64,000 nucleotides of DNA from an uncultured Bacilli bacterium (GTDB lineage Bacteria > Bacillota_I > Bacilli_A > RF39 > UBA660): contig CAJUCD010000002.1 of the NCBI GenBank assembly GCA_910585045.1, positions 73,829 through 137,828 of the forward strand. The letters are read 5' to 3'. The notes below the pieces were generated by a model, which searched no databases, was not told the origin of the DNA, and saw only the letters and a program-made list of their open reading frames with translations. Made by a program: the position numbers and the translations under genes. Below are positions 17,711 through 55,828 of this stretch, piece by piece (the stretch's first letter is position 1; every line of letters begins with the position of its first letter).

Positions 17711-18163
17711 TTATTTTAAATATTTTGGCTCGTCTATTTTACCGAGAAGATAATCAGCACTTATTTTATATTTTTTACATATATCATAAAGAAAAGGTGT
17801 AGCAATTATGTATCTTCCTGATTCATATCCAGCGATAGTGCCATAAGAACAGTTTAATATTTCGCCTAATTTAGTTTGAGTTAGTTTATGTTCTTTACGA
17901 AATTCTTTTAGTCTTGTACTTGAGTTTTTAATATTGTAACTATGTTTTTGATTAGCATAGTTTTTATTTTTAGTGAAATTAAATATATAGTCAATTGAAA
18001 CATTAAAATAGTCAGTTATAGTTATTAAATGCTTTAGAGGGATTATGTCATCTTCATTTTCATAGTGAGAGTATGTAGTTCGATCAATGTTTAAAATAGA
18101 GGCTAGTTCTTGTTTAGTTAAGATGTTTTTGTTTCTAAGAGAAGTTATTTTGTTTTTATACAT
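17711..18163 (-). CDS. XRE-family transcriptional regulator with two tandem HTH_XRE domains (R1).
   Basis: Two XRE-HTH units of about 60 aa each. The C-terminus SADYLLGKIDEPKYL is shared with the regulator at 53902..54372. Confidence 0.7.
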   Translation of the reverse strand: MYKNKITSLRNKNILTKQELASILNIDRTTYSHYENEDDIIPLKHLITITDYFNVSIDYIFNFTKNKNYANQKHSYNIKNSSTRLKEFRKEHKLTQTKLGEILNCSYGTIAGYESGRYIIATPFLYDICKKYKISADYLLGKIDEPKYLK

Positions 18164-18213
18164 TTGTAATCACCTACAATAATTGTCGCATTTTAAAAAG
18201 TAATTTAAAATAT

Positions 18214-18414
18214 ATGTGGGAAATGCCTCCAAATAGTTGGTTTAAAAGTGGGTCTAGTAGTTGGGCTTTTATGAGTCTAGTAGATACTAGTGGTCGTATT
18301 GCTGGAACTGGTACAAATAGTACAGAAGTTGGCATACGTCCAGTAATAAATTTGAAATCTAACGCAATAATTTCAAGAGGCGCTGGTACGCGAACTAATC
18401 CTTATGTTGTTTAG
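18214..18414 (+). pseudogene. C-terminal fragment of the paralogous secreted-protein family that ends in the NPY motif.
   Basis: SWAF...GIRPVINLKSNAIISRGAGTRTNPYVV aligns to the last 60 aa of the 54557 ORF (SWVWAF...GVRPVINLRSDIKISGNGTKDNPYVV). Confidence 0.65.
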
Positions 18415-26058: not shown

Positions 26059-27126
26059 ATGGCATTATTTGAAGTAATAAAAAAAGCAAAAGATGATAAA
26101 AATATTGTTTGGCGATATCCGAAACAGAATTTTAATACAGGATCAAAGTTAATTGTTAATGAGTCAGAAGAAGCGCTGTTCTTTTCTTGTGGTGAAGCCT
26201 TAGATTTATTTGGGCCTGGTAGATATACATTAAATACTAATAATATTCCTTTATTAAGAAGATTATTAGATATTCCAACAGGTGGAAAAACTTCTTTTAC
26301 AAGTGAAGTGTATTTTATTGATAAAACTGTTAGGCAAACAAAATGGGGAACATCATCAAAATTAGAGTTTTTGGAACCAATCTATAAATTTCCTATACAA
26401 ATTGGAGCATGTGGAGAAATACGTTTTGAAATTGAAGATTCTCGAAAATTGTTAGTAAAGCTAGTAGGCATTAAACGAAATTTTGATATTAATAATATAG
26501 ATGATTTTTTTGCTAATCAAATACTTGTGAAGGTTAAAGCTTATTTGACGGGAATAATTAAAGAAGAAAAAATAAGTATTTTTGAGATTGATGAAAAATT
26601 AGATAAAATAAGTAGAGAATTAAAAGAATTATTAAAAAATGATTTTCAAGAATTTGGCATTAAAATAGATAATTTCTTTTTAAGTAATATTGCAAAGCCT
26701 GAAGATGATAAACAATATCTAAAATTTAAAGAGTTATACTTTAAAAAAGGAGTTTTAATTGCAGATGTACAATTAGATAAAGAAATATCAGATATTGAAG
26801 CAGAAAAAGAGGCTAGTAGAATAGGAATTACGGCAAAAGGTATAGCTACAAAAAGAAAAACAGAAGGTTATTCTTATCAAGAGGAAAAAAGCTTGGAGAT
26901 TGGTAAGGAAGTGGCTAGAAATGAAGCAATGGGACAATTTACTAATATTGGAGTTGGTCTGGGTGTAATGAGTGGTACTTCAAATGTTTTAGGAAGTGAA
27001 GTTACAAAACAGGTTCAAGGAGCTTTTATGAATTTGAATGAAAAATTTTGTTCTTATTGTGGACAGAAACTTAATAATGAAGCACTATTTTGTTTTAAGT
27101 GTGGAAAGAAGGTAAGTGATGAGTAA
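26059..27126 (+). CDS. SPFH/band-7 domain protein with a C-terminal zinc ribbon (COG4260, virion-core-protein-like family; same family as B. subtilis YdjI).
   Basis: The N-terminus MALFEVIKKAKD...IVWRYP...FGPGRYTLNTNNIPLL is typical of COG4260. C-terminal zinc ribbon CSYCGQKL...CFKCGKK. Confidence 0.65.
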   Translation: MALFEVIKKAKDDKNIVWRYPKQNFNTGSKLIVNESEEALFFSCGEALDLFGPGRYTLNTNNIPLLRRLLDIPTGGKTSFTSEVYFIDKTVRQTKWGTSSKLEFLEPIYKFPIQIGACGEIRFEIEDSRKLLVKLVGIKRNFDINNIDDFFANQILVKVKAYLTGIIKEEKISIFEIDEKLDKISRELKELLKNDFQEFGIKIDNFFLSNIAKPEDDKQYLKFKELYFKKGVLIADVQLDKEISDIEAEKEASRIGITAKGIATKRKTEGYSYQEEKSLEIGKEVARNEAMGQFTNIGVGLGVMSGTSNVLGSEVTKQVQGAFMNLNEKFCSYCGQKLNNEALFCFKCGKKVSDE

Positions 27127-35479: not shown

Positions 35480-35953
35480 TTGATAATGATGACTTTAGAA
35501 AATAGCAAAATAGGATCAAATGCAAGTAATAGAAAAATTCCTGATAAACATGATGTATGGAATTCAGGGGCTATTGTTATTGATAAATATGGTAATGTTG
35601 CCAAAGAAGCTAAAATAGGTTATGATGATAATCACGGAGCAGCAACGGTTAGGGCGGCAGAAAGATTAAAAATTGTTCTTGATAAGGCAATGGGTGTAAT
35701 TGTTGCTAATAATGCTAATCTTTTAGATTTAGCAGTGTTTCATACTGAAGCTAAATGTTTATTTGTATTTTTGCCATCACATATAACTGAGATTCAGAAT
35801 CAAGCAATTCACGATGTATTTTTAAATAAGCAGGATTTTTGCTTATTTTTAATGCAAGGGGAAACTAGATATTCTAATATATCGTTTGTTGAATTTTATG
35901 AATTCTTAAATAAAATAACTGTTTTAGAAGAAACAGAAGGTATTAGTAGATAA
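35480..35953 (+). CDS. Hypothetical protein.
   Basis: ORF of about 155 aa with no known motif. Confidence 0.35.
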   Translation: MIMMTLENSKIGSNASNRKIPDKHDVWNSGAIVIDKYGNVAKEAKIGYDDNHGAATVRAAERLKIVLDKAMGVIVANNANLLDLAVFHTEAKCLFVFLPSHITEIQNQAIHDVFLNKQDFCLFLMQGETRYSNISFVEFYEFLNKITVLEETEGISR

Positions 35954-35982: not shown

Positions 35983-36011
35983 TTGACAATAAAAACAATT
36001 ATGTATATACT
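35983..36011 (+). promoter_or_regulatory. Sigma-A-type promoter TTGACA-N17-TATACT for the secreted-protein paralog A.
   Basis: Hexamers read directly. About 30 nt upstream of the ATG at 36041. Confidence 0.5.
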
Positions 36012-36040: not shown

Positions 36041-37276
36041 ATGCGAGCAAAATATAAGAGAACTTTATTTTTTATTGGTGTTTTAATAGTTATGTGTGGC
36101 TTTGTGGGAGTGGCATATCTTTTTTATGATAAAGTTTTAAGTCCAGAAACTGATGTTGTAGTAGTAGAAGAATTATCTGTAAATTTTATAGATGGTTTTA
36201 AAGTTAATAGAGAAGGAGCATTTAATTTTTCAGTAACTAATAATGGTGATAAAGATATATATTATGAGATTCGTTATAATGAATTATTAGGATATCAAGA
36301 CAATATTAAGTACAGTTTAGTGTCACAAGATGCTAGTATAAATATTAGTAATGCAACTATTGATAAAGATAATAATAATTTAGCAGTGGGTATTTTGATT
36401 CCTAGCAGAGCTACTCAAAGTTTTACATTCAATGTTAGTGGTAATACTATTGCTTCATTTAATATTGAAATTAGAAAAGTTATGGATACAGATAAATATT
36501 TTTATACTACTATACTATCTAATAATAAAGTTAAAAAATCTAGTGTTACTAAAGTAGGCGAAGAAATAGCAGAAACAGATGAGGGATTAATTGAGGATAT
36601 TGATGATTTAGGTTTAACATATTATTTTAGAGGAAATGTTCAAAATAATTATGTGAAAATAGCTGAATCTTTATGGCGCATCATTCGTATTAATGGCGAT
36701 GGAACAGTAAAATTGGTTTTGGATGAAAATGTTAGTGAATTAGCTAATTATCATAGTGATATAGAAAATTTTGAAAGCTTAAAAGATGCTAGTATAAGTA
36801 CTTATTTAGCAAATTATTATGAAAGTAATTTGACTGAATATGATGATTATATTATAAATTATAAATATTGTATAGAAACAGAAAGTATTAGTAATACTAA
36901 TGAGAAATTGTATAATGGTTATACAAGATTAGTTACAAATAAAATTCCAACATTTAATTGTTTAGGAAGCCTACATAGTAGTAAAATTGGTTTATTAACA
37001 GCAGATGAAGTAATATATGCAGGAGCTAATTTTGAAAAAGAAAATAAAAGCTATTACTTATATAATAGTAAAATTGAGAATGTTTGGTGGACATCATCGC
37101 TTGCTAAAGCTAGTGCCACAGTATTTTATCCTTTTAGTGTTAATAGTAATGGAAAAGTAGAATATGCGACAAGCGGTATGTTATATCGTAATTTGAGACC
37201 GACTATTAATTTAATTAGAAAAACAGTAGTAAGTGGTAATGGTACGAAAGATAACCCTTATGAAATAAAGATATGA
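36041..37276 (+). CDS. Secreted/membrane-anchored protein, paralog A of a family with the conserved C-terminus RPxINL...SGNGTKDNPY.
   Basis: N-terminal signal anchor. Shared blocks with the 54557 ORF: YYFRGN..NY, WRIIRINGDGT, YAG, SYYLYN, and the C-terminal RPTINLIRKTVVSGNGTKDNPYEIKI. Confidence 0.6.
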   Translation: MRAKYKRTLFFIGVLIVMCGFVGVAYLFYDKVLSPETDVVVVEELSVNFIDGFKVNREGAFNFSVTNNGDKDIYYEIRYNELLGYQDNIKYSLVSQDASINISNATIDKDNNNLAVGILIPSRATQSFTFNVSGNTIASFNIEIRKVMDTDKYFYTTILSNNKVKKSSVTKVGEEIAETDEGLIEDIDDLGLTYYFRGNVQNNYVKIAESLWRIIRINGDGTVKLVLDENVSELANYHSDIENFESLKDASISTYLANYYESNLTEYDDYIINYKYCIETESISNTNEKLYNGYTRLVTNKIPTFNCLGSLHSSKIGLLTADEVIYAGANFEKENKSYYLYNSKIENVWWTSSLAKASATVFYPFSVNSNGKVEYATSGMLYRNLRPTINLIRKTVVSGNGTKDNPYEIKI

Positions 37277-37388
37277 TTTATCATGTCTTTTTGTTTTGTG
37301 TAAAGTAGATGAAAATAAAGTGTAAATGGTTGAATAATGCTTTTATATTGTTCGCTTTTCTGATAGAATATAAGTGTGTGGTGATATT

Positions 37389-37901
37389 ATGCAAATATTT
37401 AGTGATATAATAAATTTTATAAAGACTCTTTCTTTTGTAGATATAGTATTCTTTTTTGCGGTTTTAGCTTTAATGCTTTTAATTATTACTTTAATCTATT
37501 TTTTAAGAGAGAATAATGATAGTGATATTGAAGTTAATAAAAGTTCTGATAAGAAAGAATTAACAAGTGATGAAGCAGCATTACTTAGCTTAAAAGAATT
37601 AACTGAGGCTTTAGAGAATGCTGAGCCAAAAGAAGTTAATTTGAACCGTTATGAGGAAGAACAAGAAGAAAAAGCAATTATTAGTTATGAGGAACTACTA
37701 AATAGGAAAAATGATTTTGCTATTAATTATAGTGAAGAAGAAAATATTGATGAAGAACTTACAATTAAGAAAGTAGATTTAGATAACTTAATTAATAAAG
37801 AAGTTACAGAACCACAACATATAAGTGTAACTGTTATTTCTTATGATAAGGAAGAAGCTTTTTTGCAAGCTTTAAAAACATTACAACAAACACTTAATTA
37901 G
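37389..37901 (+). CDS. Acidic membrane-anchored protein, hypothetical.
   Basis: GGTGA RBS before the ATG at 37389. One TM helix, then an acidic Glu-rich tail. Confidence 0.4.
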   Translation: MQIFSDIINFIKTLSFVDIVFFFAVLALMLLIITLIYFLRENNDSDIEVNKSSDKKELTSDEAALLSLKELTEALENAEPKEVNLNRYEEEQEEKAIISYEELLNRKNDFAINYSEEENIDEELTIKKVDLDNLINKEVTEPQHISVTVISYDKEEAFLQALKTLQQTLN

Positions 37902-52136: not shown

Positions 52137-52808
52137 TTGAGTAAAGGCAAGTTAATTGTTATTGAAGGAACAGATTGTTCTGGCAAACAAACACAAAGTG
52201 AATTATTAGCACAGAATATGCGAGAAATCGGATATAAAGTAGTGAGTTTTAGTTTTCCAAATTATGCATCGCCAACAGGGCAAATAATTGGAGAAGCTTA
52301 TTTGGGCAAAAGTGGTAATTCAGTATTTAGTGAGGGAATAGAAAATGTTGACCCGAAAATTTCTAGTCTTTACTATGCAGCGGATAGAGTGTATAATATT
52401 GAAGTCATTAAAAATTATTTGGATAATGATTATATTGTTATTTTAAATAGATATGTTGAGTCTAATATGGCTTTTCAAGGTGGTAAAATTAAAGATATAA
52501 AAGAAAGAAATATGATGTATGAATGGTTAGATAATCTAGAATTTGTATTGTTAGAATTACCAAGACCAGATTTAGTAATATTTCTTTATTTACCATATGA
52601 ACATGTTTGTATGTTAAAAGAAAAAAGAGGAGAAAAAGCTAATCATAATATGCTTAGAATGGCAGAGATTGCTTATGTTGAATTAGCAAATATTTATGAT
52701 TACTTAAAAATTAATTGCTTAAATAATGCAACTCTTAGACCAATTAATGATATTGCAAAAGAGATATTAGGCAAAGTAGAATTATTTTTAAAGATGGAAG
52801 TGAAATAA
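52137..52808 (+). CDS. tmk: Thymidylate kinase-like P-loop kinase.
   Basis: [15 protein letters not shown] is a P-loop. It has the dTMP-kinase-like size. TTG start with an AGGAGTGA RBS. Confidence 0.55.
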
Positions 52809-53830
52809 TGAATTTAAGTGACTTTGATTATGAATTACCTTCGGAGTTGATTGCCCAGACTCCATTAAAAAAAAGAGATGAATCTAAATTATTAGTACTT
52901 GATAAAATGACAGGAAGTATTAATCATAAACATTTTGAGAGTATTATTGATGAACTTAATTCAGGAGATGTTTTAGTTTTAAATGATACAAAAGTTATTC
53001 CAGCACGATTAATAGGTGTAAAATCTGAGACAGGTGCTGTCATTGAACTTTTATTGTTAAAAGATTTAGGTGAGGATAACTGGGAGTGTTTGGCGAGACC
53101 TGCTAAGAGATTAAAGGTAGGTACAATTATTACTTTCAGTGAAGAATTACAAGCTAAAGTGTTAGAGAAATTAGATGAAGGTTTAGTACATGTTGAATTG
53201 ATATATAAGGGCATTTTGATGGAAATCTTAGATAGATTAGGAGAAATGCCGCTTCCTCCTTATATTCATGAACATTTAGAAGATAAAAATCGTTATCAGA
53301 CTGTTTATGCTAAGAATGTTGGGAGTGCAGCAGCACCTACGGCAGGTCTTCATTTTACAGAAGAACTTTTAGAAAAAGTGGAATCTAAAGGTGTTGAAAT
53401 ATTATTTGTTACTTTACATGTAGGTTTAGGAACATTTAGACCTGTAGAAGTGGATAACATCTTAGAGCATCATATGCATAGTGAGTATTATCAAATGACT
53501 GATATTGTGGCTGAAAAACTAAATAAAGCTAAAAAAGAGCATAGAAAAATATATGCAGTTGGAACAACAACAACTAGAGTTTTGGAAACAATAGCTCATA
53601 AATATGAACAGTTTAAAGCTTGTAGTGGAAATACTGAGATATTTATATATCCTGGTTATGAATTTAAAGCTATTAATGGTCTTATAACTAATTTCCATTT
53701 ACCTAAATCAACATTGTTAATGTTAGTGAGTGCTCTTTCAACAAGAGAAATTATTTTAAATGCTTATAAGGAAGCAATAAAAAATAAATATCGTTTTTTC
53801 TCGTTTGGTGATGCAATGTTTATAAAATAG
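52808..53830 (+). CDS. queA: S-adenosylmethionine:tRNA ribosyltransferase-isomerase.
   Basis: N-terminus [15 protein letters not shown], and the GLHFTEELL motif. Confidence 0.9.
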
Positions 53831-53901
53831 ATAATTAGTAAAAAAAGCATTTTCTTTTTTAGAGAATGCTTTTTAGTTTTAAAAAATATAATTTGGTTAA
53901 A

Positions 53902-54372
53902 CTAGTCTAAATAAATAGGATTGTCAACTTTTCCTAAAAGATAGTCTGCTGATAAATTATTTTTTTGACAGATATTATATAAGTATGTCGTTAAAATTTT
54001 ATTTTTATCATTGAGATAAGCCCATATAGTAGAAACTGTTGTGCCAGCATCAATAGCCAGCGATTCTAATTTCAGATGATTTTTTTCTTTAAAATTTTTG
54101 AGGTTTTCTGATAATTTGTTAAAGTTCATTGGCTTATATTCTATATTACTTTTCTCAGTATAAAAGTTGAATAGATAATCTATTCCTATATTATAAAAGT
54201 TAGCTATTAAGTCAAGTTTTTCTAAAGGGATTTCTACTCTAGCTGATTCCCAGTTTGCATAAGTTGCTCTTTTAATATTTAATTTTAAGCATAAATCTTC
54301 TTGCTTTAACTTTTGCTCAATTCTTAAATAATGAAGTTTATTAGCTATAATTATAAGAGGTTCGTTTTTCAT
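53902..54372 (-). CDS. XRE-family regulator with two tandem HTH_XRE domains (R2, paralog of 17711..18163).
   Basis: Two HTH units. The shared C-terminus LSADYLLGKVDNPIYL. Confidence 0.7.
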   Translation of the reverse strand: MKNEPLIIIANKLHYLRIEQKLKQEDLCLKLNIKRATYANWESARVEIPLEKLDLIANFYNIGIDYLFNFYTEKSNIEYKPMNFNKLSENLKNFKEKNHLKLESLAIDAGTTVSTIWAYLNDKNKILTTYLYNICQKNNLSADYLLGKVDNPIYLD

Positions 54373-54455
54373 TATACATCACAGATTAATTGTCTCATTT
54401 TAGCGTTTAAAAATGAATTGTCAAAACTCATATGTGCTCGTTCACGAAAAAAAAC

Positions 54456-54484
54456 TTGACAAATAGTATAGGTGATATTATAAT
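54456..54484 (+). promoter_or_regulatory. Consensus sigma-A promoter TTGACA-N17-TATAAT for secreted-protein paralog B.
   Basis: Exact hexamers. Preceded by an A8 tract. Confidence 0.6.
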
Positions 54485-54515
54485 TTTAGTATAAATGATA
54501 AATTTCTAATATAAT

Positions 54516-54525
54516 TGAGCGCTCA
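54516..54525 (+). promoter_or_regulatory. Perfect 10-bp GC-rich palindrome TGAGCGCTCA between the promoter and the RBS of paralog B. Candidate operator for the divergent XRE regulator.
   Basis: It is its own reverse complement. It stands out in the roughly 80% AT intergenic context. Confidence 0.35.
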
Positions 54526-54556
54526 TTATTTAGAATCAGAGAAAAGAGGATAAATA

Positions 54557-55828
54557 ATGAAATTAGAAAAGTTAGGTAAAAATTATAGAAAAGAAGTAAT
54601 AGGAGGTTTGATAGTAATAAGTGTAATAGGAGTATTAGGATTTAATTTAACAAAAGCTAAGTATCAGAATATTGAAGATATAGAATTAGTAAAAGGCGAA
54701 GTTAATTATAAATTACCAGATTTTAAAATGATGGCAATGTATAAAAGTGATGATGGCAGTTATGAAGAAGTAAGTGAATTACCAGGAAATAACTATAAGA
54801 TAAATGAAAGTAAGAGTTATTGTACAATAAATAATGTAGATAAAGATAATAGTGCAAAACTATATACAGATAAATATGGCCAACATGTAATAGGAAATAT
54901 AAGCAAGAACGATAAATGCTATTTATATTTTGATAAGAATACAGAAGTAGTAAGTACAGTCTTAGGAAATATTGAAGTAAATAACTATACTCCAGACTTT
55001 AGTGTAACAGCAACAACAGATGAAGGAATATTTAAAGCTGAAGATAATGATGGAGTAAGCTATTACTGGAGGGGAGCAGCAACTACAAACTATTTAAAGT
55101 TTGGCGGATATTGTTGGCGCATAATTCGTATTAACGGTGATGGAACGATGAGATTAATCTATGATGGAACAACATGCCATAAAAATGGCGAAGTAACAAC
55201 AGATAGTATAGCAGTAGCAAATATAGCGTACAATGCAGCATTTGGCAAGTCAGAATATGTAGGATGGACATATACTGAGGGCTTACAAAGGCCAAATAGT
55301 ACAATAGAAGGAACAAATGCACCAATTAAAACAGTTCTGGAAAATTGGTATAACAATAATTTAAAGAGCTATGAAGAAAAAATAGCAGATGGAAAATTTT
55401 GTAATGATAGAAACGTTCAAAGTGGGCAAAGTTGGTTAAGCACATCAAGTAATACATACTATTACGCACCCAGCGCAAGAACATATACAAATTATGCACC
55501 AACACTATGCTGCACAGTGCTAGATACATATATATTAAAAGTAGGACTTATAATATCAGATGAAGTAATGTATGCTGGAGGCAAAAATGTTGACAATGAC
55601 TCATACTACCTATATAATGGCCAGAATTATTGGACTATGACTCCACACAGTTGGCTTGTAGGAACAGTTGCCAGTTGGGTTTGGGCGTTCTATGTACATT
55701 CAACTGGCTACTTCAATGCTTACGGAGTAGACAATAAGTTTGGTGTGCGCCCTGTAATAAATTTGCGTTCTGATATTAAGATTTCTGGAAATGGAACAAA
55801 GGATAATCCATATGTTGTTTTAAATTAG
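54557..55828 (+). CDS. Secreted/membrane-anchored protein, paralog B of the RPxINL...SGNGTKDNPY family.
   Basis: Signal anchor. The blocks YYWRGAATTNYLKFGGYCWRIIRINGDGT, YAGG, SYYLYNG, and the C-terminal GVRPVINLRSDIKISGNGTKDNPYVVLN. Confidence 0.6.
   Translation: MKLEKLGKNYRKEVIGGLIVISVIGVLGFNLTKAKYQNIEDIELVKGEVNYKLPDFKMMAMYKSDDGSYEEVSELPGNNYKINESKSYCTINNVDKDNSAKLYTDKYGQHVIGNISKNDKCYLYFDKNTEVVSTVLGNIEVNNYTPDFSVTATTDEGIFKAEDNDGVSYYWRGAATTNYLKFGGYCWRIIRINGDGTMRLIYDGTTCHKNGEVTTDSIAVANIAYNAAFGKSEYVGWTYTEGLQRPNSTIEGTNAPIKTVLENWYNNNLKSYEEKIADGKFCNDRNVQSGQSWLSTSSNTYYYAPSARTYTNYAPTLCCTVLDTYILKVGLIISDEVMYAGGKNVDNDSYYLYNGQNYWTMTPHSWLVGTVASWVWAFYVHSTGYFNAYGVDNKFGVRPVINLRSDIKISGNGTKDNPYVVLN

Follow-up and report, generated by a model that had tools for sequence, protein, structure and literature searches.

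What kind of protein is encoded where two long open reading frames (ORFs) share collinear blocks of sequence and an almost identical C-terminal tail, and what does that tail do? The question arises in a 64,000-nucleotide stretch (hereafter the window) of contig CAJUCD010000002.1, from an uncultured Bacilli bacterium of the RF39 lineage, in which three ORFs that we refer to as copies A, B and C (Table 1) had been grouped by an initial annotation, made from the sequence alone, as a paralogous family of secreted proteins with an invariant RPxINL...SGNGTKDNPY tail. The explanation that we favor, and to which as a whole we give a probability of about 0.62, is that A and B are exported, lectin-like proteins of the DUF6273 superfamily that would bind ligands at the cell surface, and that they are maintained under at least two different genetic regimes.

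The A and B proteins are 34% identical over their C-terminal 235–270 or so residues, about two thirds of each protein (E = 2e-33), and a tblastn search with C as the query matches the last 66 residues of B (E = 1e-12). Both values are far beyond chance and bear out the proposal that A and B are paralogs and that C retains the tail only; the ORF coordinates and lengths given in the initial annotation are exact, and the common blocks and tails that it quoted are present in the proteins. No family copy beyond these three was found by tblastn across the window; in species-representative genomes at least 574 loci of the family were confirmed, with at least five to seven per metagenome-assembled genome (MAG) as counted among 80 retained loci. 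A and B each have one hydrophobic stretch behind a basic N-terminus (residues 9–27 in A), as expected of the N-terminal signal anchor that had been predicted.

Confident AlphaFold2 (AF2) models, built from homolog alignments, were obtained for both proteins. That of A (pLDDT 89.8) consists of a transmembrane (TM) helix, a beta-sandwich and a globular domain, and that of B (pLDDT 84.5, pTM 0.81) has disordered residues 1–55 followed by a beta domain and a globular domain. The globular domains have the core fold of C-type-lectin-like domains, in the enlarged form that characterizes DUF6273, and a Foldseek comparison with viral models returned matches mostly named as DUF6273 domain-containing proteins, plus one receptor-binding protein. 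In profile searches DUF6273 (Pfam PF19789; 172 model positions, gathering score 23.5 bits) is matched at E ≤ 0.01 by 15 of 55 aligned family members, no other Pfam family being matched, and more distant relatives lie above the cutoff (P0253 with 49.1 bits and P0091 with 32.4 bits). The A/B family is an outlying branch of the DUF6273/C-type-lectin-like superfamily, and can be given a name where the initial annotation had none to offer.

Several observations weigh against the explanation and need to be considered alongside it. B scores 11.7 bits against PF19789 (E = 0.24, profile positions 126–171 only), which is below the gathering score, and A has no Pfam DUF6273 match; judged from their sequences, both would be outlying relatives and not formal members of the Pfam family. 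No relative chain was found in the PDB by sequence and profile search, NCBIfam yielded no match for either protein, and the link to the closest solved relative, the DUF6273 domain of the IgA peptidase IgAse/ThomasA of Thomasclavelia ramosa (PDB 9qa6), is structural only. That N-terminal domain, described in two papers of 2025, is an irregular, double-sized C-type-lectin-like domain resembling the C-terminal domain of Lcl; the peptidase cleaves IgA without it, and no function is known for it (PMC12402451, PMC12237041). Furthermore, the N-terminal segment of A and B may be either a stable anchor or a cleaved signal; we note that the alignment consensus of B-type proteins has a conserved T-x-A|K-Y just past the hydrophobic stretch. 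As no function is known for the one relative with a solved structure, it is by analogy with C-type lectins, with Lcl and with the targets of diversity-generating retroelements (DGRs) that ligand binding is proposed, and both this role and the surface location are best regarded as probable.

In IgAse, a sortase-anchored metallopeptidase of 140 kDa, the DUF6273 domain comes first, whereas the A/B domain comes last in a protein of about 420 residues that has an N-terminal anchor and lacks a catalytic domain; the IgAse domain has zinc ligands D78, H90 and C126, whereas the A/B family has no invariant histidine; and the IgAse domain is without the long loop, a site of Ca2+ and carbohydrate binding with an EPN/QPD-type motif, and without the tethering disulfides. 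No sequence-level match between the two was found. The members of PF19789 include gut-phage DGR targets and 'tentaclins', with which A and B share the C-type-lectin-like fold and PF19789 as the sole Pfam match, and B-type proteins vary most towards the C-terminus of the domain, at the place to which the DGR variable regions of phage DUF6273 proteins map. Unlike the phage genes, those of the A/B family are cellular and chromosomal and are without retroelement diversification; their domain is also longer than the PF19789 model, of which only the C-terminal part aligns. The C-terminal domain of Legionella Lcl (DUF1566; PDB 8q4e) and canonical C-type lectin domains are about half the size of the A/B domain and 10–15% identical to it. 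TvpA of Treponema denticola and Mtd of Bordetella phage are DGR variable proteins with the C-type-lectin fold, whereas no retroelement was found in the window and variation comes by allele exchange, rearrangement and deletion.

According to the explanation that we favor, the short basic N-terminus and single hydrophobic helix would provide for membrane retention or export of the A and B proteins, the beta-sandwich would act as a spacer, and the C-terminal 230–270 or so residues would form the enlarged C-type-lectin-like domain of the DUF6273 superfamily, which, placed at the cell surface, most likely binds a ligand, be it glycan or protein. That this is an exported or surface family, as first proposed, is upheld by the N-terminal anchor or signal and by the modules with which the domain is combined elsewhere: some relatives pair it with fn3, Listeria-Bacteroides repeats (Flg_new), InlB B-repeats or the ALK/LTK glycine-rich domain. 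The first three of these are modules of bacterial surface proteins. We found no evidence to support a relation to toxins or pili. The family is large, with more than 6,000 word-indexed homologs of B and about 1,200 of A, all annotated as 'hypothetical' and coming from MAGs whose labels are Bacilli, Tenericutes or Mycoplasma sp. CAG; an exhaustive profile search gives 10,858 representatives at 50% identity, 3,059 of them at E ≤ 1e-30, and giant proteins containing as many as 11 copies of the domain are among the matches. In several related genomes (loci L007, L040, L043, L051 and L053) two family genes are adjacent, in tandem or flanking one regulator, an arrangement that points to local duplication.

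As a core gene, copy A is both invariant and syntenic. In the sequence collection 324 blocks contain it without a single difference, as against only 36 for B, and full-length orthologs at 52–60% identity are found in other species, where the gene order dnaK-pepF-dnaJ-A-small TM protein-radical SAM-...-recD2 is kept. A gene of 170–175 codons lies directly behind the A orthologs in all of the loci examined; its counterpart in the window, which matches no Pfam, PHROG or PADLOC family, would be tied to A by conserved synteny alone. Between dnaJ and A there is also a 157-aa ORF (35480..35953) with no Pfam, PHROG or PADLOC match, which this species keeps (called as a gene of 155 aa) and which two other species lack at that position. 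The first of the two regimes would be that of A, with a core gene whose place among housekeeping genes is fixed.

The same setting gives substance to a different explanation, namely that A, at least, has a housekeeping role in the envelope, binding the cell's own wall or membrane glycopolymer and working together with the small membrane protein as the envelope is built or the cell divides. The invariance of A within the species speaks for this, as does its fixed position, without a regulator, between dnaJ and the genes for the small TM protein and the radical-SAM protein across species at 52–56% identity, and the organism has wall and lipoteichoic acid genes. Because it encodes MltG, an LtaS-like enzyme and a polysaccharide deacetylase, we conclude that it has a cell wall despite a GC content of about 27% and a mollicute-like appearance. 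However, A has no homology to any known envelope factor in Pfam or NCBIfam, its synteny partners (dnaJ, MiaB-like) are functionally unrelated, and the massive tandem repetition of the same domain in giant surface proteins fits adhesion better. We consider envelope housekeeping to be improbable on balance, but a serious alternative for copy A only.

The second regime would be that of B, in which a divergent regulator, a conserved promoter and leader, and the lectin-like gene make up one cassette, presumably controlled from an operator; strains differ by exchange, rearrangement and deletion of this cassette, and one such deletion is copy C. The initial annotation did not mention the divergent helix-turn-helix (HTH) genes, and the regulator cassette is new relative to it. 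Both regulators contain two Cro/C1-type HTH domains, with the internal repeat visible; they are about 150 residues long, each lies upstream of and divergent from B or C, and they are paralogous (E = 5e-29). The regulator beside C is present as an exact protein in 600 collection blocks and it is this protein that the regulators of related loci match best. In 20 of the 38 full-length B-type loci of other genomes that have enough upstream sequence, the same regulator is found 122–278 bp upstream on the opposite strand.

Alignment of 25 of these regulator-gene intergenic regions shows that ATTTTTCTTGACTTT (the -35 element with an A/T tract) and TATAATTT (the -10 element) are kept in at least 80% of loci. 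A consensus sigma-A promoter had been attributed to each of the three copies, and this holds for B (12 of 12 consensus matches) and for A (11 of 12), and fails for C, upstream of which the best candidate has nine of 12 matches, the level expected by chance in AT-rich DNA, and there is no Shine-Dalgarno sequence. Two leader types are seen in the alignment, of which that of the window has an imperfect palindrome (Table 1), and locus L003 has TTGAGGCCTCA, such that the symmetry of the palindrome is preserved. The B leader matches no Rfam family and its predicted RNA fold is no better than that of shuffled sequence (z = -0.97), on which grounds we reject a structured RNA leader or riboswitch upstream of B and read the palindrome as a candidate operator, through which the regulator may control B. 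The second, longer leader type (in L011, L015, L021, L029, L036, L039, L054 and L060) has GCTAG/CTAGC elements in the promoter spacer, just past the -10 element and about 60 nt downstream, together with complementary TCATCATA/TATGATGA arms; these elements could be multiple operators or a structured leader.

A cassette of this form could also be of phage or defence origin, either as an XRE repressor paired with a membrane protein for superinfection exclusion, or as a receptor-binding protein from a prophage. Gut-phage DUF6273 proteins and receptor-binding proteins include fold relatives, PADLOC has generic HTH components that the regulators resemble, and the B locus is strain-variable. The flanking genes, though, are of the housekeeping type (queA, tmk, glyA, alaS-like and topA), with no phage genes, and a catalogue of 2.9 million viral contigs contains five relatives as against more than 574 in genomes. 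PADLOC has no match for A, B or their small neighbours and only generic HTH matches for the regulators, and there is no meaningful PHROG match for A or B. We reject a prophage origin because of the housekeeping flanks and the count of only five viral contigs, and regard a phage or defence function more generally as unlikely. The viral contigs concerned (L099-L103, from IMG/VR) encode B relatives at 32–52% identity, which may belong to phages proper or to host DNA beside prophages.

Returning to the lectin-like domain, alignment of both types reveals invariant columns comprising G..YY.RG...NY, WRI.R.NG(DG), two cysteines (C277 and C307 in A, C282 and C319 in B) and a D-E following a hydrophobic strand, as well as N, L, W-T, G, R-P and G.G...PY. 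The blocks G..YY.RG...NY, WRIIRINGDG, the hydrophobic strand with the DE helix, YYLYN..W(W)T, RPxINL and GxGTxxNPY probably constitute the fold core, and the divergent stretches between them would be mostly surface loops. A similar motif order occurs in DUF1566, FISUMP and DUF6273, running from a W..L strand through a hydrophobic strand with an acidic helix start and an aromatic-W-S/T element to a basic-P/C closing strand, and by this resemblance the shared columns would be core fold positions. The invariant cysteine pair and Asp-Glu could alternatively serve an enzyme, FGE-like or with some other catalytic use of the lectin-like fold; the similarity to FGE-type folds is weak and the tandem domain arrays count against an enzyme, and this seems to us very unlikely.

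Less probable again is the role first suggested for the invariant tail, that of a signal by which secreted proteins related to adhesins, toxins or pili would be sorted, processed or anchored. It is the best-conserved short stretch of these proteins and in single-domain members lies 2–9 residues from the C-terminus (303 of 377 instances). Those 377 instances were obtained by scanning 387 fetched relatives with the pattern RP.[IV].[LIV]...G.G[TS]...PY, and the other 74 are internal, the motif closing every tandem domain, with 11 instances at a period of about 276 residues in the 4,905-aa relative P0241. Because the pattern recurs internally, we conclude that the tail closes a repeatable domain and is not such a signal. 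The AF2 models of A and B agree in placing it in the last strands of a confidently folded domain, where it probably forms a pair of closing strands; both proteins end 2–9 residues past ...NPY with no hydrophobic or charged segment behind it, and signals of the LPXTG type are located elsewhere in the proteins that have them, for example IgAse. The sorting-signal reading is thus largely refuted by the internal recurrence and the folded strands. The giant relatives P0241 and P0242 (3,528 aa) consist in part of 7–11 tandem copies of the same domain of about 276 residues.

The further claim that the family is diversifying stands in one sense and not in another. The B cassette sits in a hotspot of within-species variation: homologs of B form an identity continuum (95, 88, 76, 73% and on), and between strains B is 93.8–96.5% identical in nucleotide sequence while its flanking genes are 99.5–100% identical, so that B is 10–30 times more diverged than its flanks. 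The third copy, moreover, is a presence/absence polymorphism. However, synonymous divergence is itself raised (dS 0.09–0.14, dN 0.02–0.05, dN/dS 0.24–0.34), which leaves positive selection on the whole gene unsupported; the amino acid changes fall in the anchor and stalk (11 of 89 positions in the anchor and beta domain) and not in the lectin-like head (6–8 of 278 positions), and A is invariant. Adjoining the cassette, queA (52808..53830) has a dS of 0.06–0.10 between strains where the other flanks have 0–0.02, which suggests a recombination tract that may reach beyond B. Because dS is raised along with dN, and raised in queA as well, we favor imported alleles or recombination over positive selection driven by point mutation. 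In one strain (L092 2380..5884, a variant of window positions ~53830..54556) the anchor of B and the whole upstream region have been replaced, and where the regulator would be there are instead a 135-aa ORF, genes for an ABC ATPase and an FtsX-type permease, a 274-aa ORF and a 68-aa gene with a single HTH.

Copy C is explained by comparison with a strain of the same species, L095, which has an identical regulator, the same topA and ABC-transporter flanks, and a 432-aa gene at the position of C that is 58% identical to B and, over the tail, 97% identical to C. The window lacks about 1,221 bp that are present in L095 between short imperfect repeats (...ATATGTGGGAAATGCCT / ...ATATTGGACTATGTCT), a loss that took with it a TTGACT-17-TATAAT promoter, the ribosome-binding site and about 366 codons; what are now codons 1–5 of ORF C was once intergenic. 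Among the contigs read, the allele with the deletion is the commoner, and the topA-regulator-gene-ABC order at this locus was only partly found in other species. Within the coding sequence of B there is a second perfect TTGACA-17-TATAAT (55590..55618) that covers codons V-D-N ... Y-N of the SYYLYN block and lies directly upstream of the start of the C alignment; it may simply result from AT-rich codons, or it may serve the downstream genes as an internal promoter.

The idea that B is a DGR target with the tail-only copy as its template repeat (TR) is prompted by DUF6273 being a known DGR target scaffold with its variable region at the C-terminus (PMC10743442, PMC11792537) and by B-type residues 362–397, just before the tail, varying most across species, but it has next to no likelihood and is rejected, as the three tails are only about 55–65% identical at the DNA level, blastn within the window finds no TR-like copy, no reverse-transcriptase-like ORF is seen in the window (by a crude YxDD scan only, with two matches in unrelated contexts), the changes between strains affect 2–3% of positions in the lectin-like domain of B with no adenine-specific pattern and no C-terminal concentration, and copy C is accounted for by deletion.

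Table 1. Positions in the window of the three copies, their predicted domains and the associated genes and sites
Feature	Positions	Strand	Size or residues	Remarks
Copy C	18214..18414	+	66 aa	Pseudogene left by deletion within a full-length paralog of 432 aa; no promoter
Deletion junction of C	about 18213..18229
Regulator beside C	17711..18163	-		Tandem-HTH (XRE-type); HTH_3 9.7e-24, two stretches
Promoter-like site of A	35983..36011	+		TTGACA-17-TATACT, 11/12 consensus matches, then AAGAGGGG ribosome-binding site
Copy A	36041..37276	+	411 aa
A TM helix	36047..36139	+	residues 3-33	AF2 model
A beta-sandwich	36152..36478	+	residues 38-146	AF2 model
A enlarged C-type-lectin-like/DUF6273-like domain	36584..37273	+	residues 182-411
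A closing motif	37196..37261	+		RPTINL...GNGTKDNPY
Small membrane protein	37374..37901	+	175 aa	3' of A; N-terminal TM segment, acidic C-terminal part
Regulator divergent from B	53902..54372	-		Tandem-HTH (XRE-type); HTH_3 3.3e-16 and a second HTH_19 stretch
Conserved promoter and leader of B	54456..54534	+
Promoter of B	54456..54484	+		TTGACA-17-TATAAT, 12/12 consensus matches
Imperfect palindrome	54505..54534	+	30 bp	TCTAATATAATTGAGC/GCTCATTATTTAGA; core TTGAGCGCTCA at 54515..54525
Copy B	54557..55828	+	423 aa
B hydrophobic segment	54596..54652	+	residues 14-32
B beta domain	54725..54982	+	residues 57-142	AF2 model
B DUF6273-like lectin-fold domain	55025..55825	+	residues 157-423	AF2 model
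B segment most variable across species	55640..55747	+	residues 362-397
B closing motif	55748..55813	+		RPVINL...GNGTKDNPY

Elsewhere in the window, between 23919 and 28360 and just upstream of hrcA, a gene for a 707-aa protein with a TIR_2 domain (residues 157–274) and a C-terminal bacterial SH3_3 domain is followed by genes for an SPFH/Band-7 protein (26059..27126) and for a 414-aa protein with no Pfam match, and this group might constitute a TIR-based module for defence or signalling.

The fold and the family described here were already known, neither with an established function, and we do not claim a new kind of system; the value of the analysis lies in the annotation and in the details of regulator, leader and deletion rather than in a new principle. 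A bolder interpretation would be that the regulator, the promoter and leader, and the lectin-like exported protein together form a previously undescribed, exchangeable 'surface-receptor cassette' that is duplicated, swapped between strains and deleted in small-genome gut Bacilli, under pressure from the host or from phages, as a recombination-based counterpart of the diversification that DGRs bring to the same fold, with the regulator setting which paralogs are displayed; we offer this tentatively, and think it unlikely. The placement within the DUF6273/C-type-lectin-like superfamily gives annotators a name and provides a defined ectodomain for glycan-array and binding studies. The organisms concerned are prevalent, uncultured, small-genome gut Bacilli whose surfaces are almost undescribed, and one lectin-like module, present as at least five to seven genes per genome and in about 10,900 clusters, is probably a main means by which they make contact with host glycans, other microbes or phages. 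Together, the regulator cassette and the gain, loss and exchange of its genes at the strain level make surface variation without a retroelement testable in these bacteria.
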